Positions 6,423-64,000 of a stretch of 64,000 nucleotides of DNA are shown piece after piece. Position numbers and translations under genes: made by a program. The stretch is from a virus (Duplodnaviria; Heunggongvirae; Uroviricota; Caudoviricetes). Each line of letters opens with the position of its first letter. Positions within the stretch are counted from its first letter, which is position 1. The stretch lies in the IMG/VR virus record IMGVR_UViG_3300020723_000003; one strand, 5' to 3'. The notes under the pieces were generated by a model. It searched no databases, was not told the DNA's origin, and was given only the letters and a program-made list of their open reading frames with translations.

Positions 6423-6430
6423 ATATGACA

Positions 6431-7111: not shown

Positions 7112-7176
7112 ATTAAAATACCGTTTAAATAAAAATATATATAATTATATATTAATGTTATTTTGAGGTTTGTATT

Positions 7177-22665: not shown

Positions 22666-22702
22666 AATACAAAAAGTGGAAAAAAATATATTTGATACTG
22701 TT

Positions 22703-27911: not shown

Positions 27912-27912
27912 T

Positions 27913-28836: not shown

Positions 28837-28839
28837 ATT

Positions 28840-30174: not shown

Positions 30175-30177
30175 GTT

Positions 30178-30864: not shown

Positions 30865-30865
30865 T

Positions 30866-31492: not shown

Positions 31493-31493
31493 T

Positions 31494-33764: not shown

Positions 33765-33782
33765 TTAATTGAAGGTGAACTT

Positions 33783-34790: not shown

Positions 34791-35549
34791 GTGAGCATAG
34801 TTTTACGTGAAGAATCTGGTCGTGGATTTTTGTCAAATTATATTACAATTTTAAATTCGTATAAAAAGTTTGTTGGTAAAGAAGGAATATCTTATAAAGA
34901 TATACACATTTCAACAGAACATTTTAAATTGTATGGTGGAAATCCTAGAGAATGGTTTGATGTTTATAATTTTTCTGATGGCGACGAAAACTCGGAATTC
35001 TGGAGTACTGGAGAGTTAAATGAAATTGAAGAATATCCAAATGTTGAATCCTTAAATTTATTAAGTTATTCAAAGTTTATACCATATAATACAAGACTTA
35101 AAACATTTCTTAATAAAAATATAAAATCATTAAATAAATGTTTAGGTGTTCATTATAGAGGGACTGATCATTTTAATGCTGTTATTAAACCTGATATTAT
35201 GTTTCTTAATGTAGAAGAACAGTTAAAAACAGGTAAATATGAGCAAATTTTTATTTGTAGCGAACAACAAAACTTTATTGATCTTATAGCAGGTTTTGTT
35301 CAAATTAATTTTAATGACGTTGATATAATTGTTAATGATGTTGAACGATGTGATTCAACTCCTGTATTTTATTTAGATACCAATAAGATATCATTAGGCG
35401 ATCAAGTTTTATTGGATGCTCATATGTTATCAGCTTGTGATTTTGTATTGGGTAAATCATCAAACATTGTTAGTTATGCACGGATTCTAAATTTAAGTTT
35501 GAATGGTTTTTATTTAGATACTCAAAAATATTTTTTAATTGGTAATTAA
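34791..35549 (+). CDS. Hypothetical protein (GTG start)
   Basis: 252-aa ORF between gmd and fcl. Confidence 0.35.
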   Translation: MSIVLREESGRGFLSNYITILNSYKKFVGKEGISYKDIHISTEHFKLYGGNPREWFDVYNFSDGDENSEFWSTGELNEIEEYPNVESLNLLSYSKFIPYNTRLKTFLNKNIKSLNKCLGVHYRGTDHFNAVIKPDIMFLNVEEQLKTGKYEQIFICSEQQNFIDLIAGFVQINFNDVDIIVNDVERCDSTPVFYLDTNKISLGDQVLLDAHMLSACDFVLGKSSNIVSYARILNLSLNGFYLDTQKYFLIGN

Positions 35550-35551
35550 TT

Positions 35552-36484
35552 ATGGAAAAGAATTCAAAAATTTATGTTGCTGGCCATAATGGCTTAGTTG
35601 GTTCGGCAATTGTTAGAAAATTAAAAGAATTAGGATATACTAATCTTGTTTTAAAAACAAGAAAAGAATTAGATCTTAGGAATCAATATGCTGTTGACAG
35701 GTTTTTTGATATTGAGCGACCTGAATATGTTTTTGTTGCTGCAGCAAAAGTTGGTGGAATTAATTACAATAAAATGTATCCTGCAGAATTTATTACTGAA
35801 AATTTACAAATTCAAACAAATATAATCAAAAGTGCTTTTGATTATAGAATAAAAAAGATTTGTCAATTGGGTACTGCTTGCATTTATCCTAAAATAACAG
35901 AACAACCAATAAAAGAAGAATACTTAATGACAGGTCCATTAGAACATACTAATGAAGCTTATGCATTAGCTAAAATTTCTGGTTTGATGATGTGTAAAAA
36001 ATATTATGAACAATATGGATTTAAAAGTATTAATGTGATGCCAACAAATCTTTATGGTATAAATGATAGATTTGATGTGAATCATGGTCATGTTATTCCT
36101 GGATTAATTAATAAATTTTTAGAAGCTAAAGAAAGCAATTCTAGTAGTGTAGAATGTTGGGGAACTGGTACTCCTACAAGAGAATTTTTATTTTCTGATG
36201 ATTTAGCTGATGCATTGATTTTTCTGATGAATACTCAAGAATATGTTGATTTGATTAATATTGGTATTGATAATGAAATTACTATTAAAGAATTGGCAGA
36301 AAAGATTAAAGATTTGGTTGGATATGAAGGTGAAATAATTTGGAATTCTGATAAACCGGATGGAACTCCAAGAAGAAAGATGTGTAATGCTAAATTGAAA
36401 GAACTTGGTTGGAAACCAAAATATACTTTAGAAGAAGGATTAAAAATAACATTAGATTGGTATTTGGAAAACATTAGGTCATAA
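35552..36484 (+). CDS. fcl: GDP-4-keto-6-deoxymannose 3,5-epimerase/4-reductase (GDP-fucose synthase or ColC-like)
   Basis: KIYVAGHNGLVGSAIVR N-terminus, YALAK motif. 310 aa, typical of Fcl/WcaG. Confidence 0.8.
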   Translation: MEKNSKIYVAGHNGLVGSAIVRKLKELGYTNLVLKTRKELDLRNQYAVDRFFDIERPEYVFVAAAKVGGINYNKMYPAEFITENLQIQTNIIKSAFDYRIKKICQLGTACIYPKITEQPIKEEYLMTGPLEHTNEAYALAKISGLMMCKKYYEQYGFKSINVMPTNLYGINDRFDVNHGHVIPGLINKFLEAKESNSSSVECWGTGTPTREFLFSDDLADALIFLMNTQEYVDLINIGIDNEITIKELAEKIKDLVGYEGEIIWNSDKPDGTPRRKMCNAKLKELGWKPKYTLEEGLKITLDWYLENIRS

Positions 36485-36486
36485 TA

Positions 36487-37665
36487 ATGAAAAAATTGAA
36501 ATTGAAATGTGGTTGGAAATTGATGAATAATTCTATCACAATAAAAGATAGAATTAATTTGGCTAAATTTGTTTTATTTTCTGATAGATTCACTATGGCA
36601 GATAAAGTAAACCAAGTAGAGAAAGAATGGGCTGAATGGGTTGGCGCTAAACATTCTTTATTTGTTTCTTCTGGAAGTACTGCAAATTTTTTATTATTAG
36701 CTGCGATTAAAGAAAAATTTAATTTAAAACAAAAAGATAAAGTTTTAGTTTCTTCTTGTACTTGGATGACAAATGTTTCTCCAGTAATGCAATTAGGTTT
36801 TACTCCTATCTTTTGTGATGTTTCTTTTGATAATTTCAGTTTTGATGAATCTGAATTAGCATATATTTCAGAAAAACATCCTGACATTAAAGTTGTTTTT
36901 ACAACACACCTTTTGGGATTTAATTCAGATACTAAAATATTAGAATCATATTTTCCAAATGCTATCATATTAGAAGATGCGTGTGAAGCAATGGGCGCAA
37001 AAGCTAATGATGGAACTTATCTTGGTGCAAATTCTTTAGGGTGTACATTCAGTTCATATTTTGGTCATACTATTTCTTCAATTGAAGGTGGTTTTGTTAC
37101 TACAAATGATACAGAATTATATGATTTGATGAAAATGAAAAGAAGTCATGGTTTAGCGAGAGAATCAATATTTTTTGATGATTATGCTGCCAAATATCCT
37201 TATATTGATAAACAGTTTTTATTTATTACTGATGGTTATAATTTCAGAAACCACGAAATATGTGCAATTTTAGCTTCTTCTCAGATTAAAAGATTAAAAT
37301 CCTTTGTTGATATTAGAAGTAAAAATCATAAATTGTTTTCTGAGATGACTGAAAAATATTTAGATAAAATTCAACAGATTAAATTTTATGAAACTAGTGC
37401 GAGTTTTTGTTTTCCTATTATATGTAAGGATGCAGAATCGTTATCTAAATTAAAAACGTTGTTGGTAGAATATGATATTGAATATAGACCAATTTTATCT
37501 GGAAATTTATTAAAACATCCATTTCTAAAAGATTATATATTGACAACGAATCGTTTAGTCGCTAATGTTGATGTATTACACACTAATGGATTATATATAG
37601 GAAATAATCAATTTGTATCTGAAAAACATTTAAAGTTATTGGATAAAGTTTTAAGTTTATTATAA
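36487..37665 (+). CDS. DegT-family PMP-dependent dehydratase, ColD-like (His replaces the PLP lysine)
   Basis: 392 aa. SSGSTANFLLLAAI and FSSYFGHTISSIEGGFVTTND with His in place of Lys, as in GDP-4-keto-6-deoxymannose 3-dehydratase ColD. Adjacent to gmd/fcl. Confidence 0.55.
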   Translation: MKKLKLKCGWKLMNNSITIKDRINLAKFVLFSDRFTMADKVNQVEKEWAEWVGAKHSLFVSSGSTANFLLLAAIKEKFNLKQKDKVLVSSCTWMTNVSPVMQLGFTPIFCDVSFDNFSFDESELAYISEKHPDIKVVFTTHLLGFNSDTKILESYFPNAIILEDACEAMGAKANDGTYLGANSLGCTFSSYFGHTISSIEGGFVTTNDTELYDLMKMKRSHGLARESIFFDDYAAKYPYIDKQFLFITDGYNFRNHEICAILASSQIKRLKSFVDIRSKNHKLFSEMTEKYLDKIQQIKFYETSASFCFPIICKDAESLSKLKTLLVEYDIEYRPILSGNLLKHPFLKDYILTTNRLVANVDVLHTNGLYIGNNQFVSEKHLKLLDKVLSLL

Positions 37666-37672
37666 GGGTTTT

Positions 37673-38518
37673 ATGAATTCAATTAGAGAAAAGGTAAAAG
37701 AACTTAGTGTTGTTTTTGTAGGTCCAACAAGAGATAGTTCTGGAAATCTTACAAAAATATTTGAGAATATTGAAAGAATTGGTGGACTATTTAAATCTTT
37801 TTCTTGTGTATTTGTGGAAAGTGATTCTTCTGATAATACTTTAGAAATTCTTAAAAATTATAAAAGTGGTCGCGATAATATTCATATACTTTCTTTAGGG
37901 AAATTAGAAGATAGAATTAATTCTAGAACATGTAGGATTGCTACAGCAAGAAATGTTGGGATTGAATATTGTGAACAAAATAATATCTTAGATACTCATG
38001 ATTATTATATTCATATGTGTGTTGATGATGTTAATAGTGAAAAGATTGAAGAAGAAGATTTCTTAAGTTGCTTTAAATACGACATATCTTCTTGGGAAGG
38101 TATGACAGCAAATCAGTTAAATTATTATGATATTTGGTGTTTACGAGCAAAAGGTTGGGTTGAAAATGATTGTTGGTATGCAATTCATAATAGACCTTCT
38201 TATATGTCTTATGATGAAGCATTTATAATGTATGTAGGATCTAAATTTATACAAATTCCAAAAAATTACGGTTTAATTGAAGTTGATGCTGCTCATGGCG
38301 GTTTTGGAATCTACAAAAGTTCTTTTGCTAAAGGTTCTCGGTATAGAGGTTCTTCTGAAGCTGGTAATGCAGAAGAATGTGATTTAGTAAATTTCTGTAG
38401 TGATGTTAAGAAGAAAGGTGGAAGAATATTTATAAACTCAGAATTGATGAATATGAATAATGTAAATAATAGACATGATACCACAGTTCAAAGTTTACGA
38501 TCTTTAGGTAAATTGTAA
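37673..38518 (+). CDS. Hypothetical protein
   Basis: 281-aa ORF. Confidence 0.4.
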   Translation: MNSIREKVKELSVVFVGPTRDSSGNLTKIFENIERIGGLFKSFSCVFVESDSSDNTLEILKNYKSGRDNIHILSLGKLEDRINSRTCRIATARNVGIEYCEQNNILDTHDYYIHMCVDDVNSEKIEEEDFLSCFKYDISSWEGMTANQLNYYDIWCLRAKGWVENDCWYAIHNRPSYMSYDEAFIMYVGSKFIQIPKNYGLIEVDAAHGGFGIYKSSFAKGSRYRGSSEAGNAEECDLVNFCSDVKKKGGRIFINSELMNMNNVNNRHDTTVQSLRSLGKL

Positions 38519-39303
38519 TGGGAAATATTACTAATACAAATATTCATGGGTCGTGTCTATTAGGGTCTCAAATGTTTGAGTATTCTTATTTAATTGCTGT
38601 TTCTTTAGAAAATCCTGGAGTTGTTCCAGGATTTTATTTAAAAAATCTTCCTGGAATGTTTGGTTTGTTAATAAATTTTCCATTTATACATAAACCTAAA
38701 ATTTTTGAAGGAGAATGTGATTATTCTGGTATAAACTACAATCCTTCTGATGTTTTAGCTTTTGATCGTAATTATGATATACATTTCAATTTCGATTATA
38801 GCATTTTTCATAAACATAAAGAATATTTGTTAAATTTATATACATTTTTGCCAGAAATATATTCTAATTGTAATACATGGATAAAAGATAATTCTTCACC
38901 AGACGAATTGTTAGTTTCAATCCATTTTAGAAGAGGCGATTATTTATCGATTTCTTCATTAAACCTTTCTTTAGAATATTTTTATGGAGCAGTTGAAACA
39001 ATTAAAAATAAACTTCCAAATTCAACATTAAAATTTGTGTGTTTTTCTAATGATATTACATGGGTGAAAGAGAAATTTGTTGGTATAGATAATATGATAT
39101 TTGTTGAATCGTTATCTGATCCTGAACAAATGTGTTTAATGTCTTTATGTGACCATAATATCATTGCAAATAGTAGTTATAGTTGGTGGGGTGCATATTT
39201 AAATAAGACACCTGAAACAATAACTATTTGTCCATCAAGTTATGGTAGTGCAGATGTAATAAGTTATTATCCTGATGAATGGATAAGAATGAACGTGCTT
39301 TAA
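38518..39303 (+). CDS. Alpha-1,2-fucosyltransferase-like (GT11)
   Basis: VSIHFRRGDYLS matches GT11 motif I (HxRRGDY). Confidence 0.6.
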   Translation: MGNITNTNIHGSCLLGSQMFEYSYLIAVSLENPGVVPGFYLKNLPGMFGLLINFPFIHKPKIFEGECDYSGINYNPSDVLAFDRNYDIHFNFDYSIFHKHKEYLLNLYTFLPEIYSNCNTWIKDNSSPDELLVSIHFRRGDYLSISSLNLSLEYFYGAVETIKNKLPNSTLKFVCFSNDITWVKEKFVGIDNMIFVESLSDPEQMCLMSLCDHNIIANSSYSWWGAYLNKTPETITICPSSYGSADVISYYPDEWIRMNVL

Positions 39304-40319
39304 TTGAGATTAATATGATAATAGAATCTGATGTAAATAATATAATAAAATCTATAGATTTTGAAAAACTAAGGAATAAATCTATCTTAATCACAGGATC
39401 TTCTGGGTTATTAGGAATTTATTTTGTTTCTTGTTTAAAAACAATACAGAAAGAATATAATATTGATGCTTATTTTTGGATAAAAAGTGATATTGATTCA
39501 AATTTTAAATCCTTTTTTGATTTTGATTGTCATATAATTAAGGAAGATATTAGCGATCTAAAAGCATTCGATTCATTACCTATGTTTGATTTTATTATTC
39601 ATTCATCAGGTTATGGTCAGCCAGATAAATTCTTAGAAGATCAGATAAAAACCATCCAAATAAACACCACAGCTACAATTAATTTATTTGAAAAATTAAA
39701 TCCAAATGGAACATTTTTATTTTTAAGTTCTAGTGAAGTTTATAATGGTTTAGATAAGTTTTCTGTGTCAGAAGATGAGATCGGGGTATCAAATACAACT
39801 AACCCTAGAGCGTGTTATATTGAATCAAAGCGTTGTGGTGAAGCTATTTGTCATATTCAAAAAAATATGGGTAAAGATGTAAAAATTGCTAGATTGAGTT
39901 TAACATATGGTCCAGGAACAAAACCGTTTGATACTAGGGTTGTTAGTTCTTTGATTCAAAAATCTATATTAAATGATTCTATAGAATTGAGAGATAGGGG
40001 CGAAGCTATTAGAACTTATTGTTATATTTCTGATGTAATAGAAATGATGTGGAATATTATTTTGCATGGAAAAGAAGTGACTTATAATGTTGGTGGAAAT
40101 ACTACATTTAGTATATTTGAAATGGCAAATATTATCTCTACTAAAACGAATAAACCAATACTTTTGCCAGAAACATCAAAAACGTTAACTGGCAGCCCTA
40201 AAGTTGTTAATATTAATATTGATAAGTATATATCCGAATTTAACAAAACTTCATTCATTGCTCTTGATGAAGGTTTAAATAATACAATTCTTTGGCAACA
40301 ACATATATACAAAATTTAA
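39279..40319 (+). CDS. NAD-dependent epimerase/dehydratase
   Basis: ITGSSGLLGIYF Rossmann motif; YIESK YxxxK. Confidence 0.5.
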   Translation: MDKNERALIEINMIIESDVNNIIKSIDFEKLRNKSILITGSSGLLGIYFVSCLKTIQKEYNIDAYFWIKSDIDSNFKSFFDFDCHIIKEDISDLKAFDSLPMFDFIIHSSGYGQPDKFLEDQIKTIQINTTATINLFEKLNPNGTFLFLSSSEVYNGLDKFSVSEDEIGVSNTTNPRACYIESKRCGEAICHIQKNMGKDVKIARLSLTYGPGTKPFDTRVVSSLIQKSILNDSIELRDRGEAIRTYCYISDVIEMMWNIILHGKEVTYNVGGNTTFSIFEMANIISTKTNKPILLPETSKTLTGSPKVVNINIDKYISEFNKTSFIALDEGLNNTILWQQHIYKI

Positions 40320-50278: not shown

Positions 50279-51277
50279 ATGGTTATGGGAATAAGAATAC
50301 TAACTCCTAAAACAATTTATACAACGGATTATCCTACTGCTATAGAATTTGCAGAAAAACAAGCTGAGGTATTTTGGCTTCCTACTGAAATTGAAGTAGA
50401 AAAAGATCTTCATGAGTTAAAAACAAATTTTACTGAAGCAGAATATCATGGTGTTATTTCAACATTAAAATTATTCACTCTTTATGAATTAAATGTTGGA
50501 AATGATTATTGGCAAAATTATATTTCTAAAGTTTTTCCGAGACCAGATATTCAAAGAATGGCTGCAACATTTTCTTTTATGGAATTGGGTGTTCATGCAC
50601 CATTCTATAATAAAATTAATGAAGTTCTTGGTTTAGATAATGATGAGTTCTATACTGATTATTTAAATGATGAAGTTCTTGCAAATAGAATGGCTTGGAT
50701 AGGTAAACGAACTGAGAAAAGAAATACTGTTTATGACGTATTAAAATCAGTTGGTATTTTCTCTATGATTGAAGGTGCAATTCTTTATTCAAGTTTTGCT
50801 TTCTTGAAACATTTCAATTCTGCAGGTAAAAATAAATTAGTAGCTATTAATGCTGGAATCAATTTCTCTGCGATTGATGAAACTTTACATTCACAAGCTG
50901 GCGGTTGGTTATTTAGAACATTATTAAAAGAAGCTAAAGAAGATGGTCAAGTAACAGATATATTTGTTGAAGAATTAATTCGAGAACTTGAAGAAACTGC
51001 TAAAGTGATATTAGAACACGAATCAATAATTATTGATAAAATATTTGAGAAAGGTCAAATTAAAGGTATTACTGAAAATCAATTGAAACGGTTTGTTGAA
51101 TCTAGATTAGATATTTGTTTAGAAAATCTTGGATATAAAGGAATTTTTAAACCAACGTATAATCCGATTAAATCTTGGTTCTATAAAGATCTAGAATCTT
51201 CTACGTTGCACGACTTTTTTTCGTCGCAAGGTTCTGATTATAATAGAAATTGGATTGAAAATAAATTTAAATGGTAA
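50279..51277 (+). CDS. nrdB: Ribonucleotide reductase small subunit NrdB (class Ia)
   Basis: Di-iron and Tyr-radical regions (MELGVHAPFY; SAIDETLHSQAG). 332 aa. Upstream of nrdA. Confidence 0.8.
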   Translation: MVMGIRILTPKTIYTTDYPTAIEFAEKQAEVFWLPTEIEVEKDLHELKTNFTEAEYHGVISTLKLFTLYELNVGNDYWQNYISKVFPRPDIQRMAATFSFMELGVHAPFYNKINEVLGLDNDEFYTDYLNDEVLANRMAWIGKRTEKRNTVYDVLKSVGIFSMIEGAILYSSFAFLKHFNSAGKNKLVAINAGINFSAIDETLHSQAGGWLFRTLLKEAKEDGQVTDIFVEELIRELEETAKVILEHESIIIDKIFEKGQIKGITENQLKRFVESRLDICLENLGYKGIFKPTYNPIKSWFYKDLESSTLHDFFSSQGSDYNRNWIENKFKW

Positions 51278-52419
51278 CTGAAATGAAAGAATTATCAATA
51301 TACGACGAATTAGGTGAAGAAAGAAAAAAATTGCAAGGTGAAGGTAAATTACCAATGTGGTGTTCGACTATTGCATGGCAAATGCTTAAAGAAAATTATC
51401 TTTCTGAAAAATATCCTGATTTAAAATCAGTATATACACGTGTAGCTAAACATGCTGCGCAATATACTACAAATCCTGATGAATGGGAACAAAAATTCTT
51501 TGATCTATTCTGGAAAGGATATTTGGCAGCTTCAACTCCTGTATTGTCTAATATGGGAACAGGATTTGGTTGTTCTGTAAGTTGTTCAGGCGGATATATC
51601 AATGATTCAGTTTATGATTTCTATGATGCACAAAAAGAAGCTGCAGTTCTATCAAAAAATGGTTTTGGTACATCAGGCTATCTTGGTGCAATTAGACCAA
51701 GAGGTTCTAAAATTTTTGGAATGAAAGGTAGTGCTTCTGGTGTCCTTCCAGTATTCAAAGATTTTATACAAATGTCTAGAGATATTTCTCAAGGTTCACA
51801 AAGACGAGGTGCTTGGGCTGGGTATCTTGAAATTGATCATGATGATTTTTATGAATTGGTAAATTATATCGGTAAGAATCCTGACGATGCAAATATTGGA
51901 TGGATTATCACAAAAAACTTTATTGATAGATTAGATGCTGGTGATAATGATGCAATTTCTAGATATCAAAAAGCGTTAAAGTTGAAAATGATTACTGGAA
52001 AGGGTTATTTCATTAAAATTGATGCTATTAATGAACAAAATCCACAAATGTATAAAGATAAAGGTTTATCTGTAAAAGCATCAAATTTGTGTTTAACTGG
52101 TGATACTAGAATTAATATTAAAGGTGATATTAGTGGCGAACTACAAGTATCAATGGAAGGGTTAAATAATTATTTAGGTAAAAATGATGATGTAGAAAAT
52201 TGGAAGGTTTGGTCATATAACACAGAAACTAACATGAGCGAATGGAAAAAAATTATAAAATCTGCACAAACATCAATATCGACTAAGATAATGAATATTA
52301 CAGACGAAATAACTGGAAAATCTATAAAATGTACGCCAGATCATAAGATTTTTACCGAGAACCGTGGATATGTTTGTGCAAAAGATTTAATGGAAAATGA
52401 TGTATTATTATTAAAATAG
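51271..52419 (+). CDS. nrdA: NrdA N-terminal extein fused to an N-terminal split-intein half
   Basis: RNR large-subunit sequence up to the active-site ...KASNL. It then switches to CLTGDTRINIKGD... (Hint N-domain, about 98 aa) and stops with TAG. Confidence 0.85.
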   Translation: MVTEMKELSIYDELGEERKKLQGEGKLPMWCSTIAWQMLKENYLSEKYPDLKSVYTRVAKHAAQYTTNPDEWEQKFFDLFWKGYLAASTPVLSNMGTGFGCSVSCSGGYINDSVYDFYDAQKEAAVLSKNGFGTSGYLGAIRPRGSKIFGMKGSASGVLPVFKDFIQMSRDISQGSQRRGAWAGYLEIDHDDFYELVNYIGKNPDDANIGWIITKNFIDRLDAGDNDAISRYQKALKLKMITGKGYFIKIDAINEQNPQMYKDKGLSVKASNLCLTGDTRINIKGDISGELQVSMEGLNNYLGKNDDVENWKVWSYNTETNMSEWKKIIKSAQTSISTKIMNITDEITGKSIKCTPDHKIFTENRGYVCAKDLMENDVLLLK

Positions 52420-52594
52420 TTTTGTGTACTGAAATATGACGAAAATATTCCTAGTTCATTTGGCGGAACTTATAGAGAAAATATTACTACTAAAAAGATT
52501 CAAAAATTACTTATAGATAAGTTTGGTGCAATTGATAAACAGTTGGGTTCATATGCTAAACACCATACAAATAAAATAAAAGAGGAAATTGAAA

Positions 52595-53590
52595 ATGAGT
52601 TTAAAAATTGAGTATTTAGAAAATGAAGAAGCGGTATATGATATATCTGTAGAAGATAACCACAATTTTTTTGCTAATGGTATATTAGTACATAATTGCA
52701 CGGAAATCACATTATTTTCTGATGAGGATCATACATTTTCTTGTGTTCTTTCATCTATGAATGCGTCTCTTTATGATGAATGGAAAGATACAGATGCTGT
52801 GTTTAATGCTACAGTATTCTTGGATTGCGTCAATCAAGATCTAATTGAAATTGGTAAAAACACTAAGGGAATGGAAAGGGTTGTTAGATTTGCTGAAAAA
52901 TCAAGAGCATTGGGATTAGGTCTTCTTGGTTTTCATACTTATCTTCAAGATCATTTAATTGCTTTTGAATCTTTAGAAGCTAATTTTAAAAATGTAGAAA
53001 TATTTAAACATCTTGATGCAGAATCAAAACGTGCTTCTGAATGGATGGCTAAAGAATTTGGTGAACCTGAATGGTGTAAAGGGTATGGAGTAAGAAATAC
53101 CCATAGAATTGCAGTGGCACCAAATCTTTCTTCTGCGTTAATCTGTGGTTCTGTGAGTCAAGGTATTGAACCTATCTATAAAAATGCTTATGTTCAAAAT
53201 ACAGCAGCAGGAAAAATGGATAGGGTTAATCCTTCATTATTAACGTTGATGAAAAAAATAAATGTATATTCAGAAGAAACTGTTAAAGATATTATTTCTA
53301 ATAATGGTTCTGTTCAGCATGTAGATTGGTTAACAGATGAAGAAAAAATAGTATTTAAAACTGCTTTTGAAATTAATCAGCATAGTATAATTAGATTGGC
53401 TTCTACAAGACAAAAATATATTGACCAAGCTCAATCTATAAATCTTTTCTTCTCTGCTGATGAAGATGAAGAATATATTTCAGAAGTCCATAAAGCTGCC
53501 TTTAAAGATCCTTATATTAAATCGTTGTATTATATTAGATCTGAAACTGGGGTTAATGTTTCAAAAGAGTGTCTGAGTTGTCATGGTTGA
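52595..53590 (+). CDS. nrdA: C-terminal split-intein half fused to the NrdA C-terminal extein
   Basis: AAGAGGA RBS. MSLKIEYLENEEAVYDISVEDNHNFFANGILVHN then CTEITLFS..., which restores the SNLCTEI active-site motif. Different reading frame from the N-half. Confidence 0.85.
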   Translation: MSLKIEYLENEEAVYDISVEDNHNFFANGILVHNCTEITLFSDEDHTFSCVLSSMNASLYDEWKDTDAVFNATVFLDCVNQDLIEIGKNTKGMERVVRFAEKSRALGLGLLGFHTYLQDHLIAFESLEANFKNVEIFKHLDAESKRASEWMAKEFGEPEWCKGYGVRNTHRIAVAPNLSSALICGSVSQGIEPIYKNAYVQNTAAGKMDRVNPSLLTLMKKINVYSEETVKDIISNNGSVQHVDWLTDEEKIVFKTAFEINQHSIIRLASTRQKYIDQAQSINLFFSADEDEEYISEVHKAAFKDPYIKSLYYIRSETGVNVSKECLSCHG

Positions 53591-55072: not shown

Positions 55073-55122
55073 ATCTTCTAATGAATTCTAATGAATTCTA
55101 ATGAATTCTAATGAAGAATAAA
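55063..55122. repeat. Short tandem repeat (TCTAATGAAT x about 4) flanked by a duplicated ATGAAGAATAAAATCT
   Basis: Direct reading of 55063..55122. Confidence 0.8.
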
Positions 55123-55326: not shown

Positions 55327-55770
55327 ATGGAAAATCTAATCCAACCCTCCTGGATCTACCAATCTCTTCCTCTTCTATCTCCTCCTGAAAATGCTATTGC
55401 CTTTGTCTATCTTATCTATAATCCCTCTACTAATAAATCCTATATCGGGAAAAAACAATTCTTCTCGAAAAAAATCTCGCAAAAATCTATTACTCAAATT
55501 GATGGCTCTAAAATTGTAAAAAAGAAAAAATTGACTGTGGAATCTGATTGGAAATCCTATAATGGCTCTAACTCTTCTCTTATTGAACATGCTAAAATAC
55601 ATCTTCTTGAAAAAACAATTCTCCATATCTGCTACTCAAAATCTCATGCTTCCTATCTGGAACTGAAAGAACAAATGTCTAGGGATGTTATTCTCTCTTC
55701 TCTCTACTATAATGACTGGGTCTCTGCTAAAATTACTAGGAAACATCTGCAAAAATTTCAAAAATTCTGA
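55327..55770 (+). CDS. GIY-YIG nuclease domain protein (free-standing, homing-endonuclease-like)
   Basis: FVYLIYNPSTNKSYIGKK (GIY...YIG), downstream E (ELKEQ) and YN as in the I-TevI catalytic domain. Embedded in a CT-rich tract with composition unlike the rest of the window. Confidence 0.45.
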   Translation: MENLIQPSWIYQSLPLLSPPENAIAFVYLIYNPSTNKSYIGKKQFFSKKISQKSITQIDGSKIVKKKKLTVESDWKSYNGSNSSLIEHAKIHLLEKTILHICYSKSHASYLELKEQMSRDVILSSLYYNDWVSAKITRKHLQKFQKF

Positions 55771-55780
55771 TTTTTATTGC

Positions 55781-55809
55781 TTGACTTTTCTATCTTCTTA
55801 TAGTATAAT
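55781..55809 (+). promoter_or_regulatory. Early promoter TTGACT-17-TATAAT (extended TATAGTATAAT)
   Basis: Perfect consensus hexamers with a 17-bp spacer. Reads into the tandem arrays. Confidence 0.7.
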
Positions 55810-55860
55810 ATCTCTATGAATTTGATAATTGTGTCTGTGATAATGGTGTCTTTGTATGAT

Positions 55861-56312
55861 CTGAATCTTTGAATCTTTGTTCGAATCTTTGAATCTTTGT
55901 TCGAATCTTCGAATCTTTGAATCTTTGTTTGAATCTTTGTTCGAATCTTTGAATCTTTGTTCGAATCTTCGAATCTTTGTTCGAATCTTTGAATCTTTGA
56001 ATCTTTGAATCTTTGTTCGAATCTTTGTTCGAATCTTTGAATCTTTGTTCGAATCTTTGTTCGAATCTTTGAATCTTTGTTCGAATCTTTGTTCGAATCT
56101 TTGTTCGAATCTTCGAATCTTCGAATCTTCGAATCTTTGAATCTTTGTTCGAATCTTTGTTCGAATCTTTGAATCTTTGTTCGAATCTTTGAATCTTTGA
56201 ATCTTTGTTCGAATCTTTGAATCTTTGAATCTTTGTTCGAATCTTTGAATCTTTGAATCTTTGTTCGAATCTTTGAATCTTTGTTCGAATCTTTGTTCGA
56301 ATCTTTGTTCGA
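55861..56312. repeat. Tandem array 1: about 45 units of GAATCTT(T/C) with or without GTTC (8- and 12-bp units, dominant 20-bp period)
   Basis: Direct reading. No ORF; TGA is present in every unit. Confidence 0.9.
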
Positions 56313-56327
56313 GAAAATATTAATTAA

Positions 56328-56336
56328 AGAAATTAT
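56328..56336 (+). promoter_or_regulatory. Late-promoter-like TATAAATA between the arrays
   Basis: AATTATAAATAGG. Confidence 0.35.
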
Positions 56337-56349
56337 AAATAGGTCTAAG

Positions 56350-56612
56350 TCAACTAAGAACTATTTACAGTTATTTACAGTTATTTACAGTTAATTACAG
56401 TTAATTACAGTTATTTACAGTTAATTACAGTTAATTACAGTTAATTACAGTTAATTGCAGTTAGATCCAGCTATTTACAGTTAATTGCAGTTAGACCCAG
56501 CTATTTACAGTTAATTACAGTTAGATCCAGCTAATTACAGATATTTACAGCTAATTACAGTTAATTACAGTTAGATCCAGATATTTACAGATAGATTCAG
56601 ATAAATACGATG
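56350..56612. repeat. Tandem array 2: about 26 units of a 10-bp repeat (TTAATTACAG / TTATTTACAG / TTAGATCCAG variants)
   Basis: Direct reading. Strict 10-bp periodicity; every unit ends in CAG. Confidence 0.9.
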
Positions 56613-56710
56613 TTATCTTTCTCTAATATATAAAGAGTAATTGGTATTTATTCAGGTTAAATCAAGAAAAGAACAATTGCGGGACAATTTCCGTTAAAAG
56701 ATATTAGAAT

Positions 56711-56804
56711 ACTAGATATAGTGTTTGTGCACTAGATATAGTATTTTATTTTAGGCAATACTATATGTAGTAGTAGACCCTTAGGGGTAGATACTAGATG
56801 TAGT
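56711..56804. promoter_or_regulatory. Four imperfect-palindrome sites ACTA-N4-TAGT (operator-like) upstream of a small ORF
   Basis: ACTAGATATAGT at 56711 and 56731, ACTATATGTAGT at 56760, ACTAGATGTAGT at 56793. Confidence 0.45.
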
Positions 56805-56842
56805 AGTAATTTATAAAAACATTCAGAAAAAGGTGAAAAATT

Positions 56843-57070
56843 ATGGCAGAACAAGAGATTAAAACAGAAGAAGCGACAATCACATTCCGAGGAAAGGAAT
56901 ATTTTGTGAAGGATTTAAGCCCCGAAGCAAACAGATACGTTGAGCAGATATTAGATTTAGAGAAGAAGATCAGAAGTACAGGATTAGATTTAGAGCAGTA
57001 TCATTTCGCCAACGAGTATTTCAACGAGATGTTATTCAGAGCATTAGAGCCAGTAGAAGAAGAAGAGTAG
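56843..57070 (+). CDS. Small protein (75 aa) with acidic tail, candidate DNA-binding regulator
   Basis: RBS AAAGGTGA. N-terminal beta-strand-like ATITFRGKEYFV followed by helices, which would be compatible with an RHH-type fold. Ends EEEE. Confidence 0.4.
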   Translation: MAEQEIKTEEATITFRGKEYFVKDLSPEANRYVEQILDLEKKIRSTGLDLEQYHFANEYFNEMLFRALEPVEEEE

Positions 57071-57082
57071 AAGAGAGAGAGA

Positions 57083-57112
57083 GGGGAGTTATAGAGACTC
57101 CCCTTTTTTTTA
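57083..57112 (+). terminator. Rho-independent terminator
   Basis: GGGGAGT-tatagag-ACTCCCC followed by T9. Confidence 0.8.
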
Positions 57113-57599: not shown

Positions 57600-60500
57600 T
57601 TATTCCAATTTAATTAGTATGTTATTATCAGGTTGTTTAATAAGATACTTATTATCCCCTTCTAGGATTTTAACAGAGGTATCTAAAGGTTTAATCAAGT
57701 AAGTATAATCAGGAGCTTTAATTAATATTCTGTGAGTATTACCATAAATAAGAGTAACTAGAGCTACTGGAAATACATTACAAATAGCAGAGATATTACC
57801 TGCCAAAAGAATATTTGTTCTTAGATTCGATGTAGCTGTAGAAACTGCAGCTACATTAGAAGCTAATTGTATACTTGTTATTAAATTAATTGGCCTAATA
57901 GTAGAAACTGCAGCTACATTAGAAGCTAATTGTATACTTGTTATTAAATTAATTGGCCTAATAGTAGAGAATACAGATACAATTGATGCAAGTTGTATAC
58001 TTGTATATAGAGTAGCATTAGTCGATACAACACAAAGATCAACAGAAGCAAGTTGAATATTTGTATGTAGATTAGCATTAGTCGATACAACAGAAGTAAC
58101 AATAGAAGCTAATTGTATACTTGTGTGTAAAGTGGCATTAGTTGATACAACACATAGATCAACAGAAGCAAGTTGAATATTTGTATGTAGATTAGCATTA
58201 GTCGATACAACAGAAGTAACAATAGAAGCTAATTGTATACTTGTGTGTAAAGTGGCATTAGTCGATACAACACATAAATCAATAGAAGCTAATTGAATAT
58301 TTGTTCTTAGATTCGATGTAGCTGTAGAAACAACAGTTACATTTGATGTTAGTTCTATGCTTGTATGTAGAGTAGCATTAGTCGATACAATACATAAATC
58401 AACAGAAGTTAGTTGAATGTTTGTATTTAAATTAATTGGACTAATTGATACAACAGATGCTAAAGTATTTGATGCAAGTTGTATACTTGTATGTAGAGTA
58501 GCATTAGTAGATACAACACACAGATCAATAGAAGCTAGTTGTATGTTTGTATTTAGATTCGATGTAGCTGTAGAAACTGTAGATACATTAGAAGCTAATT
58601 GTATGTTTGTATTTAAATCAATTGGGTTAATTGATACGACAGATGCTAAAGTATTTGATGCTAATACAATATTTGTATTTAACGAAGCATTAGTCGATAC
58701 AACACACAGATCAACAGAAGCTAGTTGTATGTTTGTATTTAAATCAGCAGGGCTAATAGATACAACAGAAGAAATATTTGATGCTAATACAATATTTGTA
58801 TTTAACGAAGCATTTGTCGCTACAACACACAGATCAACAGAAGCTAGTTGTATAGCAGTTGTTAGGCTAGAAGAAGCAGTAGAAACAACAGATACATTAG
58901 AAGCCAGTTTGATATTTGTGTTAAGAACAGCATTAGTTGATACAACACATAAATCAACAGAAGCTAGTTGTATAGCAGTTGTTAGATTAGAAGAAGCAGT
59001 AGAAACAACAGATACATTAGAAGCTAGTTTGATATTTGTGTTAAGAACAGCATTAGTTGATACAACACACAGATCAACAGAAGCTAGTTGTATAGCAGTT
59101 GTTAGGCTAGAAGAAGCAGTAGAAACAACAGATACATTAGAAGCTAGTTGGATGTTTGTATTTAAATTAACAGAAGTAACAGATACAACAGATGTTAAGA
59201 TATTTGATGCTAATGTAATATATGTTCTTAAATCAATTGGACTAATTGATACGACAGATGCTAAAGTATTTGATGCTAATGTGATATTTGTTCTTAACGA
59301 AGCATTAGTCGATACAACACACAGATCAACAGAAGCTAGTTGGATGTTTGTATTTAAATTAACAGAAGTAACAGATACAACAGATGTTAAGATATTTGAT
59401 GCTAATACAATATTTGTATTTAACGAAGCATTAGTCGATACAACACACAGATCAACAGAAGCTAGTTGGATGTTTGTATTTAAATTAACAGAAGTAACAG
59501 ATACAACAGATGTTAAGATATTTGATGCTAATACAATATTTGTATTTAACGAAGCATTTGTCGCTACAACACACAGATCAACAGAAGCTAGTTGTATGTT
59601 TGTATTTAAATCAGCAGGGCTAATAGATACAACAGAAGAAATATTTGATGCTAATACAATATTTGTATTTAACGAAGCATTTGTCGCTACAACACACAGA
59701 TCAACAGAAGTTAGTTGTATAGCAGTTGTTAGGCTAGAAGAAGCAGTAGAAACAACAGATACATTAGAAGCTAGTTGGATAGCATTTGTAAGATTCGATG
59801 TAGCTGTAGAAACAACAGAAGCAACAATAGATGCTAATGTATTATTTGTATTAAGAACAGCATTAGTTGATACAACACATAAATCAACAGAAGCTAGTTG
59901 TATAGCAGTTGTTAGATTCGATGTAGCTGTAGAAACAACAGAAGCAACAATAGATGCTAATGTATTATTTGTATTAAGAACAGCATTAGTCGATACAACA
60001 CACAGATCAACAGAAGCTAGTTGTATAGCAGTTGTTAGGCTAGAAGAAGCAGTAGAAACAACAGATACATTAGAAGCTAGTTGGATAGCATTTGTAAGAT
60101 TCGATGTAGCTGTAGAAACAACAGATACATTAGAAGCCAGTTTGATATTTGTATTAAGAACAGCATTAGTCGATACAACACACAGATCAACAGAAGCTAG
60201 TTGTATAGCAGTTGTTAGGCTAGAAGAAGCAGTAGAAACAACAGATACATTAGAAGCTAGTTGGATAGCATTTGTAAGATTCGATGTAGCTGTAGAAACA
60301 ACAGATACATTAGAAGCCAGTTTGATATTTGTGTTAAGAACAGCATTAGTCGATACAACACACAGATCAACAGAAGCTAGTTGTATAGCAGTTGTTAGAT
60401 TAGAAGAAGCAGTAGAAACAGAAGAAATATTTGATGCTAATTGGATAGCATTTGTAAGATTCGATGTAGCTGTAGAAACAACAGAAGTAACAATAGAAGC

Positions 60501-61064
60501 TAATTGTATACTTGTATTAAGAACAGCATTAGTCGATACAACACATAAATCAACAGAAGCTAGTTGTATAGCAGTTGTTAGATTAGAAGAAGCAGTAGAA
60601 ACAGAAGAAATATTTGATGCTAATTGGATAGCATTTGTAAAAGAAGCAGAAACAATAGTTGATACTGATGCTACACTTGAATTTATTTTTATCGTTGTCG
60701 CTAACGAAGCACCAGATACAGCTAATGATGATGTAGAAGCAGCAAGAAAAATTTGTGTATTTAGTGTTATTGTTCCTACAACACTAATTGTATTCGCTGT
60801 TCCGAATAGTGTTATGTAAGTTGTTAAATTTGATGTAGTAACAGATGTTATACATGTTACTGTAGAATTTAACGAAATTCCAGTTATTAAATTGATAGAA
60901 GATGCAACAGCAACACATTTAGGTGCTGTTGTGCATAATATTTGTGTTGTAACATTTGATGATGTTGTAGAAACAACAAATACAGATGCGCTTAATTGAG
61001 CAGCAGATTTTGCTGTTCCTGATGAAGATATTGGATTTGAACTTATCGGGAAAAACCCTAACAT
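57600..61064 (-). CDS. Hyper-repetitive fibre-like protein (1154 aa; about 20-aa periodic repeats)
   Basis: Unique N- and C-termini flank dozens of near-identical ASVDLCVVSTNAVLNTNIKLASNVSVVSTASSSLTTAIQL units. These are encoded by 60/120/180-bp nucleotide tandem repeats. Confidence 0.65.
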   Translation of the reverse strand: MLGFFPISSNPISSSGTAKSAAQLSASVFVVSTTSSNVTTQILCTTAPKCVAVASSINLITGISLNSTVTCITSVTTSNLTTYITLFGTANTISVVGTITLNTQIFLAASTSSLAVSGASLATTIKINSSVASVSTIVSASFTNAIQLASNISSVSTASSNLTTAIQLASVDLCVVSTNAVLNTSIQLASIVTSVVSTATSNLTNAIQLASNISSVSTASSNLTTAIQLASVDLCVVSTNAVLNTNIKLASNVSVVSTATSNLTNAIQLASNVSVVSTASSSLTTAIQLASVDLCVVSTNAVLNTNIKLASNVSVVSTATSNLTNAIQLASNVSVVSTASSSLTTAIQLASVDLCVVSTNAVLNTNNTLASIVASVVSTATSNLTTAIQLASVDLCVVSTNAVLNTNNTLASIVASVVSTATSNLTNAIQLASNVSVVSTASSSLTTAIQLTSVDLCVVATNASLNTNIVLASNISSVVSISPADLNTNIQLASVDLCVVATNASLNTNIVLASNILTSVVSVTSVNLNTNIQLASVDLCVVSTNASLNTNIVLASNILTSVVSVTSVNLNTNIQLASVDLCVVSTNASLRTNITLASNTLASVVSISPIDLRTYITLASNILTSVVSVTSVNLNTNIQLASNVSVVSTASSSLTTAIQLASVDLCVVSTNAVLNTNIKLASNVSVVSTASSNLTTAIQLASVDLCVVSTNAVLNTNIKLASNVSVVSTASSSLTTAIQLASVDLCVVATNASLNTNIVLASNISSVVSISPADLNTNIQLASVDLCVVSTNASLNTNIVLASNTLASVVSINPIDLNTNIQLASNVSTVSTATSNLNTNIQLASIDLCVVSTNATLHTSIQLASNTLASVVSISPINLNTNIQLTSVDLCIVSTNATLHTSIELTSNVTVVSTATSNLRTNIQLASIDLCVVSTNATLHTSIQLASIVTSVVSTNANLHTNIQLASVDLCVVSTNATLHTSIQLASIVTSVVSTNANLHTNIQLASVDLCVVSTNATLYTSIQLASIVSVFSTIRPINLITSIQLASNVAAVSTIRPINLITSIQLASNVAAVSTATSNLRTNILLAGNISAICNVFPVALVTLIYGNTHRILIKAPDYTYLIKPLDTSVKILEGDNKYLIKQPDNNILIKLE

Positions 61065-63400: not shown

Positions 63401-64000
63401 TGTCAAGTTTTAGTTCACCAGCGACTGGCGATTTTGACAAATATTTTATGACTACAACTGATTTAATTGATCGGTTTGCAGTAGGCGGGTTATGGGTTTG
63501 TGGTTATAATGGTTATGGAGAACTTGGCGATAGTACCATAACAAATAAAAGTTCTCCAGTTCAGACCATAGCAGGTGGAACAAATTGGAAACAAGTTGCT
63601 ACTGGTTATTATCATACCGCAGCAATCAAGACCGATGGTACATTATGGACTTGTGGTTATAATGGTACTGGACAACTTGGCGATAGTACCACCGTTACTG
63701 GTAGAAGTTCTCCAGTTCAAACCATAGCAGGTGGAACAAATTGGAAACAGGTTGCTTGTAGTTTTGATCATACCGCAGCAATCAAGACCGATGGTACATT
63801 ATGGGGATGGGGTAGAAATTCTTATGGAGGGCTTGGCGATAGTACCGTTACAAATAAAAGTTCTCCAGTTCAAACCATAACAGGTGGAACAAATTGGAAA
63901 CAAGTTGCTTGTGGAACTTATCATACCGCAGCAATCAAGACCGATGGTACATTATGGACTTGGGGTTATAATGTTACTGGACAACTTGGCGATAGTACCA
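63400..64000 (+). CDS. RCC1-repeat (beta-propeller) protein, 3' partial
   Basis: ATG overlaps the upstream stop (TAATG). At least four repeats of GGTNWKQVA-x-HTAAIKTDGTLWTCGYN-x-GQLGDST. The frame is open to the window end. Confidence 0.6.
   Translation, partial: MSSFSSPATGDFDKYFMTTTDLIDRFAVGGLWVCGYNGYGELGDSTITNKSSPVQTIAGGTNWKQVATGYYHTAAIKTDGTLWTCGYNGTGQLGDSTTVTGRSSPVQTIAGGTNWKQVACSFDHTAAIKTDGTLWGWGRNSYGGLGDSTVTNKSSPVQTITGGTNWKQVACGTYHTAAIKTDGTLWTWGYNVTGQLGDST

Follow-up and report, generated by a model that had tools for sequence, protein, structure and literature searches.

Why a phage should carry, behind an early promoter, two adjacent arrays of short tandem repeats was asked for a locus in a 64-kb stretch of DNA (the window) of an uncultured freshwater phage. 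The phage is T4-like, has a GC content of about 30% and derives from humic-lake metagenomes. Outside T4, there is practically no map of origins or other cis-acting control regions. The features of the locus are collected in Table 1. Its neighbours are a GIY-YIG gene, a Zn-ribbon gene, an SPFH gene and a 75-aa ORF, and it faces the late genes, which are convergent to it. A search of phage DNA in GenBank with the locus yielded no match, and in a literature search no description of an element composed of promoter, box and 10-bp array was found.

Table 1. Features of the array locus, numbered from the first base of the window.
Feature	Position	Strand	Remark
GIY-YIG gene, standalone, SegE-like, 147 aa	55327..55770	+	Pfam PF19835, E = 1.4e-24
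Early promoter, sigma-70-type, TTGACT-17-TATAAT	55781..55809	+	11/12 consensus positions
15-bp leader repeat TGATAATGGTGTCTG, 1.9 copies in the window	55823..55851	+	
Array 1, 45 units of 8 or 12 bp	55863..56310	+	
AT-rich spacer, TATAAATA at its end (56334-56341)	56311..56341	+	
Conserved box GGTCTAAGTCAA, directly upstream of array 2	56342..56353	+	
Array 2, 24 exact 10-bp units and one degenerate unit	56361..56610	+	
Near-palindromic ACTAGAT(A/G)TAGT motifs, three to four, upstream of the 75-aa ORF	56700..56812	+	
75-aa ORF, downstream of the arrays	56843..57070	+	Weak DUF6447 and phrog_21153 matches
Strong hairpin followed by a T-run	57075..57111	+	

The two arrays are genuine, encode no protein and lie far outside chance expectation. 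Chance was excluded because the highest lag-10 and lag-20 identities of the whole window map to the arrays, and because the same order of the 45 units of array 1 was assembled independently in at least eight metagenome contigs. The initial annotation, made from the sequence of the window, had regarded both arrays as non-coding and as free of CRISPR-like spacers, and both statements were confirmed. The unit lengths are not multiples of 3, stops interrupt the frames of the plus strand and no start codon is present on the minus strand of array 1; the units are contiguous and 8, 10 or 12 bp long, whereas CRISPR needs repeats of 23-47 bp with unique spacers. The promoter upstream of array 1 had been called perfect; it is present but deviates from the consensus at one position. 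Similar promoters occur in other intergenic regions of the window, and several members of this family carry TATAGTATAAT. The TATAAATA motif noted between the arrays was located there as well, but it is not conserved at that place in relatives, and it also occurs 33-74 bp upstream of three other ORFs of the window.

Both arrays had been described as phased at 10 bp, which is correct for array 2 only. Array 2 consists of 24 in-register 10-mers (56361-56600) with the consensus TTAATTACAG, all ending in CAG and free of indels, so that of the 26 exact copies counted at first the unit length stood and the number became 24 plus the degenerate one. The proposal that unit variants recur in blocks is borne out by an identity at lag 30 (0.85) slightly above that at lag 10 (0.79). 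AATT or ATTT elements appear once per 10-bp turn in the window. Array 1 has the roughly 450 bp and the dominant 20-bp period first attributed to it (448 bp; Tandem Repeats Finder score 426, period 20; lag-20 peak of 0.69). Its identity at lag 10, however, is at background (0.27), with further peaks at lags 8 and 12 (0.61 each), and GAATC, counted modulo 10, shifts its phase from 0 through 8, 6 and 4 to 2. It is a mosaic of units whose lengths are all multiples of 4, namely 18 copies of GAATCTTT (a), 21 of GAATCTTTGTTC (B), five of GAATCTTC (c) and one of GAATCTTTGTTT (D), in the order aBaBcaDBaBcBaaaBBaBBaBBBcccaBBaBaaBaaBaaBaBBB. Array 1 is not helically phased and does not qualify as a regularly spaced iteron cluster.

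A module of the same build as array 2 and its surroundings recurs in about nine further, more distant lineages (L030/L031, L060, L035, L045-L049, L052/L054, L056-L058, L059, L055, L032-L034 and L042/L044). Its order is standalone GIY-YIG gene, TTGAC(G/T)-17-TATAAT promoter, leader, GTCTAAG(T/A)CAA box and 10-bp array. Compared with the window, the neighbouring 161-aa protein of these lineages is 54-63% identical and the GIY-YIG protein 52-53%. The promoter is kept almost base for base, with TTGACG-17-TATAAT at the equivalent place in all related lineages, and the box occupies the same position in all of them, inside a longer box ATTACTAAGTAGTCTAAG(T/A)CAAAAA. All related arrays step by exactly 10 bp and have a pyrimidine-A-G core (CAA in one lineage). 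This core and the 3' boundary of the array are kept, while the remaining positions of the unit vary between lineages. The number of copies runs from 3 to 30 across the clade and from 3 to 20 in the related lineages alone, and the orientation of the array relative to the promoter is constant throughout. Super-units of 20 bp, in which two unit types alternate, are found independently in L074, L030 and L059. In L032-L034 promoter and array fill a gap of 323 bp that holds no ORF at all; the array is therefore not simply the untranslated region of a gene.

In every related lineage examined that retains the left flank a GIY-YIG gene lies directly upstream of promoter and array. Conversely, no array was present at about 65 distant GIY-YIG loci or in the cultured phages Melnitz and Variovorax V45v66; the array-less GIY-YIG homologues of other T4-like phages are 35-43% identical. 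This indicates that the array is a clade-specific trait and not a by-product of the nuclease gene. On the comparison of sequences, array 2 is this phage's copy of a conserved, clade-wide non-coding module, which closes the block of replication and nucleotide-metabolism genes in a T4-like clade of uncultured phages from fresh water. The combination of early promoter, box and 10-bp array of variable copy number is thereby newly defined as a conserved and easily recognisable module of this abundant clade of lake phages. Searches of viral contigs with the exact array patterns returned one contig of the same phage and chance two-copy matches, and right-hand anchors retrieved nothing from viral contigs. 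With the SPFH gene as anchor, L010 and L011 proved to share that gene only and not to be syntenic, and L004 contains scattered ATTACAGT motifs but is an unrelated phage. When 185,579 reference genomes of bacteria and archaea were searched with a 20-mer of array 2, only chance matches of two to three copies in unrelated taxa were obtained; there is thus no host array to mimic.

Within the population of this phage the repeats vary against a nearly constant background. In about 20 independent contigs the flanks are near-identical, and within one near-clonal population they differ by about 0.3% (6 mismatches in 1,964 bp), but the repeats differ: array length and unit order change greatly, the unit types being retained and their order reshuffled. 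The predicted length polymorphism was found in alleles of 45, 42, 41, 39 and 13 units for array 1 and of 24 or 30 units, in different order, for array 2, although short-read assemblies may collapse or mis-join repeats and the lengths are to be read with this caveat. In the 30-unit allele TTAGATCCAG alternates with (C/T)TA(A/T)TTACAG. The 15-bp leader repeat has about two copies in the window and about four in another allele, and a TTCTAATGAA repeat is present in 4, 3 or 2 copies in near-identical genomes. Each of the four possible pairings of an array 1 with an array 2 allele is represented (the window, L018, L021 and L074), which indicates either frequent exchange at the locus or chimeric assemblies. 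The copy-number variation shared by all small tandem repeats of the locus is partly a local mutational tendency. It provides natural alleles (24 versus 30 units of array 2, 13 versus 45 of array 1), and the arrays could be used as high-resolution strain markers in lake time series.

Conservation in related lineages, as expected of a functional element, applies to array 2 but not to array 1, which is absent from all related lineages examined and confined to this phage. Array 1 is also essentially without point variation, which implies a very recent expansion. It is a young, strain-specific expansion that probably arose from a short TCTTCGA/GAATC motif, which relatives would have as a second, small array of 10-bp units. 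In single-stranded form, RNA or DNA, array 1 is predicted to fold through its 25 TTCGAA palindromes (z = -3.9). It may supply additional binding sites or have no function; taken by itself, it is about as likely to be neutral as to be functional.

For array 2 the reading that we tentatively prefer, and to which we give somewhat less than an even chance, is that of iteron-type DNA to which a protein binds, placed in a control region that is itself transcribed; T4 oriE would be its counterpart. The array would act as double-stranded DNA, on which a sequence-specific protein would bind one unit per helical turn and polymerise along one face, often on pairs of alternating unit types, the 20-bp super-units. 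The resulting nucleoprotein array may cooperate with transcription from the adjacent consensus early promoter. The outcome could be an early origin that is activated by transcription, with early promoter and iterons as in T4 oriE, or a regulatory block where early genes give way to late ones, and copy number would shift fast by slippage or unequal exchange while the function is kept. Protein binding had been put forward for both arrays. For array 2 it is the best available reading, supported by the clade-wide 10-bp arrays; array 1 is neither helically phased nor conserved outside this phage. Array 2 is a cluster of direct repeats of the size (about 10-22 bp) and regular spacing seen in iteron-type origins. 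Its synteny, a further mark of an origin, extends over about nine further lineages that share the order of promoter, box and array. As to a promoter and an AT-rich element, the early promoter is conserved, and only the 30-bp spacer between the arrays is markedly unstable; its duplex is the weakest of the locus and reaches the 97th percentile of instability in the window. The arrays themselves were rejected as an unwinding element since they are not unusually unstable (20th-29th percentile for array 1, 69th-81st for array 2). Among the points against a protein-bound array, the 10-bp period could persist by common descent without selection for helical phasing, and the conserved promoter and constant orientation fit an RNA function equally well.

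The protein that would bind array 2 was sought among the encoded proteins. Pfam and PHROG scans of the neighbouring ORFs and about 65 ORFs of the window revealed no Rep, RepE-like or other iteron-binding family, and Pfam on the tested ORFs of the window no iteron-binding initiator, ribbon-helix-helix protein, ParB or ParR. The scan for initiators covered 64 kb of a genome of about 200 kb (estimated by analogy with a 214-kb contig of a relative), and the gene may lie at a distance. Several sites of host factors were also compared with the arrays by eye. GANTC, the site of CcrM/GcrA, is not conserved in the second arrays of relatives as judged by eye, and it is neither depleted nor special in the genome. 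For CtrA (TTAA-N7-TTAA) the spacing in the window is N6 and TTAA is absent in relatives, again by eye. A DnaA box is approached by TTATTTACA at 8/9 positions in the window only, related arrays failing to match, and IHF sites gave partial matches only, by eye.

T4 offers the closest parallel. Its origins oriE, oriF and oriG lie near strand-switch regions, and for the iterons of oriE a role was never established (PMC3016281). Both oriE, an origin dependent on an early promoter, and the element described here occur in T4-type phages, and each pairs a sigma-70-type promoter of the early mode with a cluster of short direct repeats at even spacing, which related phages have in syntenic position and which are found close to where the transcribed strand switches (PMC3016281). 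The iterons of oriE, however, measure 12 nt, and oriE is located within gene 5 in antisense orientation and is accompanied by the small genes repEA and repEB, whereas the present element occupies a dedicated non-coding region, consists of 3-30 contiguous 10-bp units, has a conserved upstream box and is strongly polymorphic in copy number. The two have no sequence similarity, and Pfam found no RepE-like family among the tested ORFs of the window. In T4 oriF and oriG and in the primary origin of T7 a promoter is followed by an easily unwound region and the transcript primes replication. These resemble the locus, where a strong promoter points into AT-rich non-coding DNA and two gene blocks meet, but they need no repeats, the arrays here are not unusually unstable, and the promoter here is of the early type and not MotA-dependent. 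The module is a concrete target for the mapping of replication starts by read depth and for the identification of binding factors.

A different kind of protein-bound array, the centromere of a type II partition system, had been proposed too. Centromeres of this type are built from repeats such as the ten of 11 bp in R1 parC and the four of 20 bp in pSK41, and ribbon-helix-helix proteins also bind the omega heptads and the met-boxes of MetJ. Array 2 is similar in having contiguous head-to-tail repeats of about one turn, often as 20-bp pairs, which would suit cooperative binding on one face. Nevertheless, the proposal was not supported. No ParM/ParR-like gene was detected by Pfam in the tested ORFs, no recognisable ribbon-helix-helix gene lies near the arrays, and the 75-aa protein has no detectable ribbon-helix-helix fold. 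The promoter is moreover upstream of the repeats and not within them, and a lytic T4-like phage has no known need for partition.

That the conserved module works as RNA is possible, but we consider it doubtful. It would then yield an abundant, unstructured, untranslated early transcript with 10-nt repeats, which may soak up an RNA-binding protein as a multivalent decoy (phage RegA, a phage gene-32-type protein or a host factor, for instance) or may offer Rho an idealised loading site, so that early transcription would stop short of an antisense run into the convergent late genes. A consensus promoter stands directly upstream of the array in every lineage, in L032-L034 it drives a non-coding stretch alone, and the orientation of the array towards it never changes. 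RNA of array 2 is predicted to be unstructured (z = -1.1), and RegA is encoded in the window, where convergent late genes face the locus. Most related arrays have more C than G on the transcribed strand, as judged by eye, but the arrays of the window lack this excess, the conserved core contains a G, which is disfavoured in a Rho loading site, and a known sponge-RNA motif such as GGA is not present. A phage-encoded tandem-repeat RNA that expands in copy number has a precedent in pseudo-ToxI of phiTE (PMC5449768). With the gathering thresholds of Rfam 15 only tRNAs were identified in the whole window; the repeats match no Rfam family, and sub-threshold matches to plant microRNAs are spurious. 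Conserved RNA structure was not found, and a stem enclosing the array was discarded: pairing between the flanks of the array is significant in 3/11 lineages only and lacks compensatory changes. If array 1 were an inverted derivative of the second array of relatives, a homology that we infer, orientation would be irrelevant, which would point to DNA.

Rather unlikely for the locus as a whole is that the arrays are neutral, hypervariable minisatellites at a recombination-prone non-coding junction next to a nuclease gene, transcribed by read-through. Every tandem repeat of the locus varies between near-identical genomes, array 1 has essentially no point variation and no counterpart in other lineages, and the occurrence of all four allele combinations points to frequent exchange or chimeric assemblies. 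Neutral repeats, however, would be expected to decay or to be lost, while array 2 has retained its position, register, core and boundaries at a protein identity of about 54%, and it is placed between conserved non-coding blocks behind a conserved promoter.

Two bolder readings are quite unlikely. One extends the RNA function: the module would encode a new kind of phage RNA, an abundant, unstructured early transcript with 3-30 copies of a pyrimidine-tract-plus-AG motif. In this reading each unit would present a codon with a final C and then AG, complementary to a C32-U33-G34 anticodon loop. The RNA could titrate an RNA-binding factor, from host or phage, or tRNAs of one class, with rapid change of copy number setting the dose. 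Should the element act as RNA, it would represent a new class of phage repeat RNA. The other joins the GIY-YIG nuclease and the array into a self-targeting module, in which breaks would start recombination-dependent replication.

It is improbable that array 2 acts through DNA shape, that is, by being intrinsically curved or anisotropically flexible and in this way attracting non-specific nucleoid proteins or influencing nearby promoters, with no dedicated sequence-specific binder. The exact 10-bp period with one AATT or ATTT element per turn would suit such a role; the core shared across lineages, however, is pyrimidine-A-G and not an A/T tract, related arrays such as ACTTCAGATA/ACCTCAGTAA hold few A-tracts, and array 1 is unphased. 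A type III antitoxin mimic that, like pseudo-ToxI of phiTE, neutralises a host ToxN-like abortive-infection nuclease is very improbable. Like pseudo-ToxI (PMC5449768), array 2 is a phage-borne, promoter-driven, non-coding tandem array of readily changing copy number, here in a T4-family phage. ToxI units, however, are about 36 nt (range about 34-45 nt) and fold into pseudoknots, whereas the units here are 10 nt, no stable fold is predicted (z = -1.1) and super-units of 20 or 30 nt are consistent neither inside a lineage nor from one lineage to another.

The 75-aa ORF downstream of array 2 has a homologue (39% identical) behind the array in L042 and L044, but it is missing from most lineages (it is absent in L030, L032, L035 and L045), and no homologues beyond its own cluster were detected. 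The AlphaFold2 model of the protein comprises a beta-hairpin and two helices that form a helical hairpin, and Foldseek retrieved no significant match to it in the PDB; model and search lend no support to a ribbon-helix-helix binder. The region of the ACTAGAT(A/G)TAGT motifs has a predicted fold of z = -3.4, and the motifs are possibly an operator or a structured leader. In the downstream hairpins G-T and A-C mismatches, used to assign the strand, are mixed (12 versus 7). The hairpin and T-run behind the 75-aa ORF probably form the 3' end of a transcription unit that comprises promoter, arrays and ORF and faces the convergent late genes.

Reading of 55400-57100 together with Tandem Repeats Finder bore out two adjacent arrays, neither of which is able to code for protein. 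The initial annotation, which had taken both for 10-bp-phased, was largely right and made a good catch in the downstream one (array 2): every unit is an exact 10-mer, without indels, and identity amounts to 0.79 at lags 10 and 20 and to 0.85 at lag 30. For array 1 the assigned phasing proved wrong. Its units (18 of GAATCTTT, 21 of GAATCTTTGTTC, five of GAATCTTC and one of GAATCTTTGTTT) are all 8 or 12 bp long, so that the phase of GAATC drifts modulo 10; identity at lag 10 is at background (0.27) and peaks at lags 8 (0.61), 12 (0.61) and 20 (0.69). When the whole window was compared, the maxima of lag-10 and lag-20 identity fell on the array coordinates. Array 1 RNA folds solely via 25 TTCGAA palindromes (z = -3.9), and the duplex stability of this array is above the window average. 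Array 2 RNA is structured at the level of shuffled sequence (z = -1.1) and its duplex is just mildly unstable.

Features of the array locus and of the remainder of the window
Feature	Position	Remarks
Tet/JBP-type 2OG-Fe(II) oxygenase	643-3414	minus strand; adjoins glycosyltransferase
Non-coding gap	6038-7177	1.1 kb, directly after UvsY and UvsW
Perfect 85-bp repeat	6234-6409	2.1 copies; GC-rich core is an inverted copy of 6147-6176
Structured-looking stretch	~6660-6800	follows 85-bp repeat
UvsX, split by intein	21757-23388	
Sugar-nucleotide biosynthesis and glycosyltransferase island	25598-40319	15 kb
NrdA, split by intein	51271-53590	
TTCTAATGAA repeat	55076-55115	perfect 10-bp tandem repeat, 4 copies, between Zn-ribbon ORF and GIY-YIG gene
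Promoter TTGACT-17-TATAAT	55781-55809	11/12 consensus positions matched
Array 1	55863-56310	45 units, each starting with GAATC, order irregular
AT-rich spacer	56311-56341	weakest duplex segment of the locus (97th percentile)
TATAAATA	56334	
Array 2	56361-56600	24 units, CAG-terminated throughout
ACTAGAT(A/G)TAGT near-palindromes	56700-56812	3-4, upstream of 75-aa ORF
Terminator hairpin	57075-57111	strong; between 75-aa ORF and convergent late genes
1154-aa repeat protein	57600-61064	minus strand
153-bp coding repeats	63490-64000	3.3 copies, extending past window end

The window derives from a T4-like myophage of ~30% GC. It encodes UvsY, UvsW, gp46/47, gp45, gp44/62, gp43, UvsX, gp41 and primase as well as gp23, RegA, a DsbA-like protein, ThyX, NrdA/B with inteins and five tRNAs. 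No cultured phage has a DNA polymerase more than 47% identical to that of the window, and no DNA match of the locus was found among GenBank phages. Early and replication genes form a rightward block of 53 kb, at the end of which the arrays are situated; the local order is NrdA, SPFH lipoprotein, 47-aa Zn-ribbon protein, 147-aa standalone GIY-YIG protein (SegE-like), promoter, the two arrays, 75-aa ORF and terminator. Beyond the latter lie the convergent late genes for a 161-aa protein and the 1154-aa repeat protein, followed by the tail fibres. Similar intergenic promoters of the same family occur at 7566, 12496, 13735, 18788, 33562 and 48764. The extended -10 context TATAGTATAAT is common to the early promoters at 7566, 18788 and 55781, and the string is also kept in the promoter upstream of the array in relatives. 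A motif similar to TATAAATA, which had been pointed out between the arrays, precedes the ORFs at 3529, 40437 and 61196 by 33-74 bp; TATAAATA is not kept at the corresponding position in relatives, and its proposed role found no support. The near-palindromes upstream of the 75-aa ORF (predicted RNA fold z = -3.4) resemble a structured leader or operator sites.

Homologues of the 161-aa late protein (54-63% identity) and a scan with the box, a conserved non-coding string just upstream of array 2, yielded ~9 further lineages, in three of which the GIY-YIG protein was aligned (52-53% identity). In all cases with the complete region, the elements follow one fixed order: GIY-YIG gene, promoter, leader, box and 10-bp array. 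The promoter, TTGACG-17-TATAAT in relatives, is kept almost base for base, and the box reads ATTACTAAGTAGTCTAAG(T/A)CAAAAA in the lineages and GGTCTAAGTCAA in the window. The leader is variable: in one sub-clade it contains a hydrophobic ORF (52 to ~60 aa), in the window and L032 it has none. The array step is exactly 10 bp in every lineage, with 8 units in contig L030, 6 in L031, ~3 in L060, at least 10 in L035, 15 in L045, 6 in L052, 8 in L056, 20 in L059, 7 in L055, 12 in L032 and 10 in L034; the ends of contigs L042 and L044 fall within such an array. A core of pyrimidine plus AG is kept, mostly as CAG (CAA in L032 and L034), as is the 3' boundary, the remaining unit positions varying by lineage. 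Super-units of 20 bp made of two unit types recurred independently in L074, L030 and L059. In L032-L034, only 323 bp separate the GIY-YIG gene from the convergent late gene, comprising promoter, leader, array and ~100 bp without an ORF, and the 75-aa ORF is limited to the window and L042-type lineages. This indicates that the array is more than a gene's untranslated region.

No counterpart of array 1 was found in relatives, the leaders of which hold just 2-3 copies of related short motifs. Relatives do have a second small 10-bp array of 2-4.5 copies downstream of the CAG array, with units TCGAAGATTC (2.5 copies), TCTCGAAGAC (4 copies) and TATCGAAGAG (4.5 copies). Because the reverse complement of TCGAAGATTC, GAATCTTCGA, occurs as an exact string inside array 1, the latter may have arisen from this motif by expansion, inversion, relocation and a change of phase. 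In L045, L052, L059, L060 and L035 the second array consists of TATCGAAGAG, TCGAAGATTC, TCTCGAAGAC or CTTCGGAGAC; here 2-3 copies of a TCGC(C/T)CT-loop-(A/G)G(A/G)GCGA hairpin, showing compensatory changes, precede the convergent late gene, and a direct repeat GAATTTCCAA...TTACTAA flanks the whole array region on both sides.

Variation within the same phage was studied in ~20 independent contigs, which exact-protein look-up had retrieved from JGI and ENA metagenomes; record names of the form TB...2009 hint at Trout Bog as their source. In the flanks these contigs agree with the window at 99.7-100% identity (6 mismatches in 1,964 bp for L074) and essentially all differences are found in tandem repeats; therefore, the repeats evolve far faster than their surroundings, and change by whole-unit reshuffling, not point mutation. 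This is subject to the reservation that short-read assembly can collapse repeats or join them wrongly, and that the ends of many contigs fall within the arrays. The 45-unit order of array 1 is identical in the window and seven other contigs, three others have 42, 41 or 39 units, and L001, L018 and L074 share a distinct 13-unit allele (aaBaBaaDaaDaB, each letter a unit type). For array 2, most contigs show 24 units, and 30 were counted in L074, where TTAGATCCAG alternates with (C/T)TA(A/T)TTACAG; this second allele is partly carried by L001 and L021. All four combinations of the array 1 (45/13) and array 2 (24/30) alleles were seen (window, L018, L021, L074), which implies either that recombination took place in the ~500 bp immediately following the GIY-YIG gene or that assemblies are chimeric. 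A 15-bp leader repeat is present in 2 or ~4 copies. Inside the same 1.7-kb stretch TTCTAATGAA is a further variable-number repeat (3 copies in L012, L013 and L021; 2 in L001). The Ser/Thr/Asn/Val-rich 1154-aa protein, a probable fibre or decoration protein, is built of ~20-aa repeats (60-bp period, ~42 copies) and likewise differs from strain to strain in the number of repeats, its gene being called at just 703 aa in L012; because of the repeats the opposite strand is open as well (800 aa).

GIY-YIG homologues of 35-43% identity are widespread in T4-like phages. A tandem array downstream of this gene was absent in ~65 metagenomic loci at that identity and in the cultured phages Melnitz and Variovorax V45v66, and a host mimicry scan of reference bacterial and archaeal genomes revealed none with such an array. 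Contigs L010 and L011 were rejected as syntenic relatives, since they have the SPFH gene alone in common. An unrelated phage (L004, IMGVR_UViG_3300020045_014817; match at 987-1005) contains ~8 scattered intergenic ATTACAGT motifs in both orientations, which looks like a separate set of putative binding sites sharing the TTACAG string by chance.

Position, register, core and boundaries of array 2 are kept across strongly diverged lineages, and it is located between conserved non-coding blocks behind a conserved promoter. This argues that array 2 is a functional cis element and not debris left by slippage. Its contiguous units of one helical turn, frequent 20-bp pairing and tolerance of changes in copy number fit best with a sequence-specific protein that would bind double-stranded DNA cooperatively on one face, as is the case for iterons and for the arrays that ribbon-helix-helix proteins occupy. 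Array 2 could then be a DNA element of the iteron type, tied to early transcription, which would serve as an origin or as a regulator at the early/late boundary; this is the reading that we tentatively favour. Among the window ORFs tested, Pfam revealed no family of the iteron-binding, ribbon-helix-helix or ParB/ParR type, which leaves the partition role suggested by the initial annotation unsupported. For the 75-aa protein, AlphaFold2 predicted a beta-hairpin and two helices (mean pLDDT 80), and this model gave no significant PDB match. The host-factor sites GANTC, CtrA, DnaA and IHF were rejected, none being kept across the clade.

The main rival holds that the transcript itself is the product, as a repeat-RNA sponge or Rho-loading array. 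Promoter conservation, constant orientation and the unstructured RNA agree with it equally well; this reading is considered rather unlikely. Full-transcript RNA folds were inconsistent from lineage to lineage, pairing of the array-flanking sequences was significant in 3 of 11 lineages without compensatory changes, and no Rfam family matched. Neutral hypervariability accounts well for array 1 but poorly for array 2, and is thought improbable. Within T4-type phages the nearest described thing to array 2, here read as a DNA element, is T4 oriE. Unlike array 2, oriE is located within gene 5 and in antisense to it. What the oriE repeats do has yet to be defined (PMC3016281). No description of a promoter-box-10-bp-array module was found in the literature. 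The module would represent a new variety of iteron-like repeat array for which the signal from relatives and from the population is unusually clear, and is directly testable by lake metatranscriptomes, read-depth profiles and binding assays.

The window also encodes a Tet/JBP oxygenase and a large sugar and glycosyltransferase island, which suggests that cytosines in the phage DNA may be hypermodified (hydroxymethylated, glycosylated); if so, any protein reading CAG/CTG in the arrays would be affected. As T4 oriF is located at uvsY, the non-coding gap after UvsY and UvsW, which matched no Rfam family, is a second candidate for a control region or an origin. Intein_splicing family matches were found at the ORF junctions of the split UvsX and NrdA.
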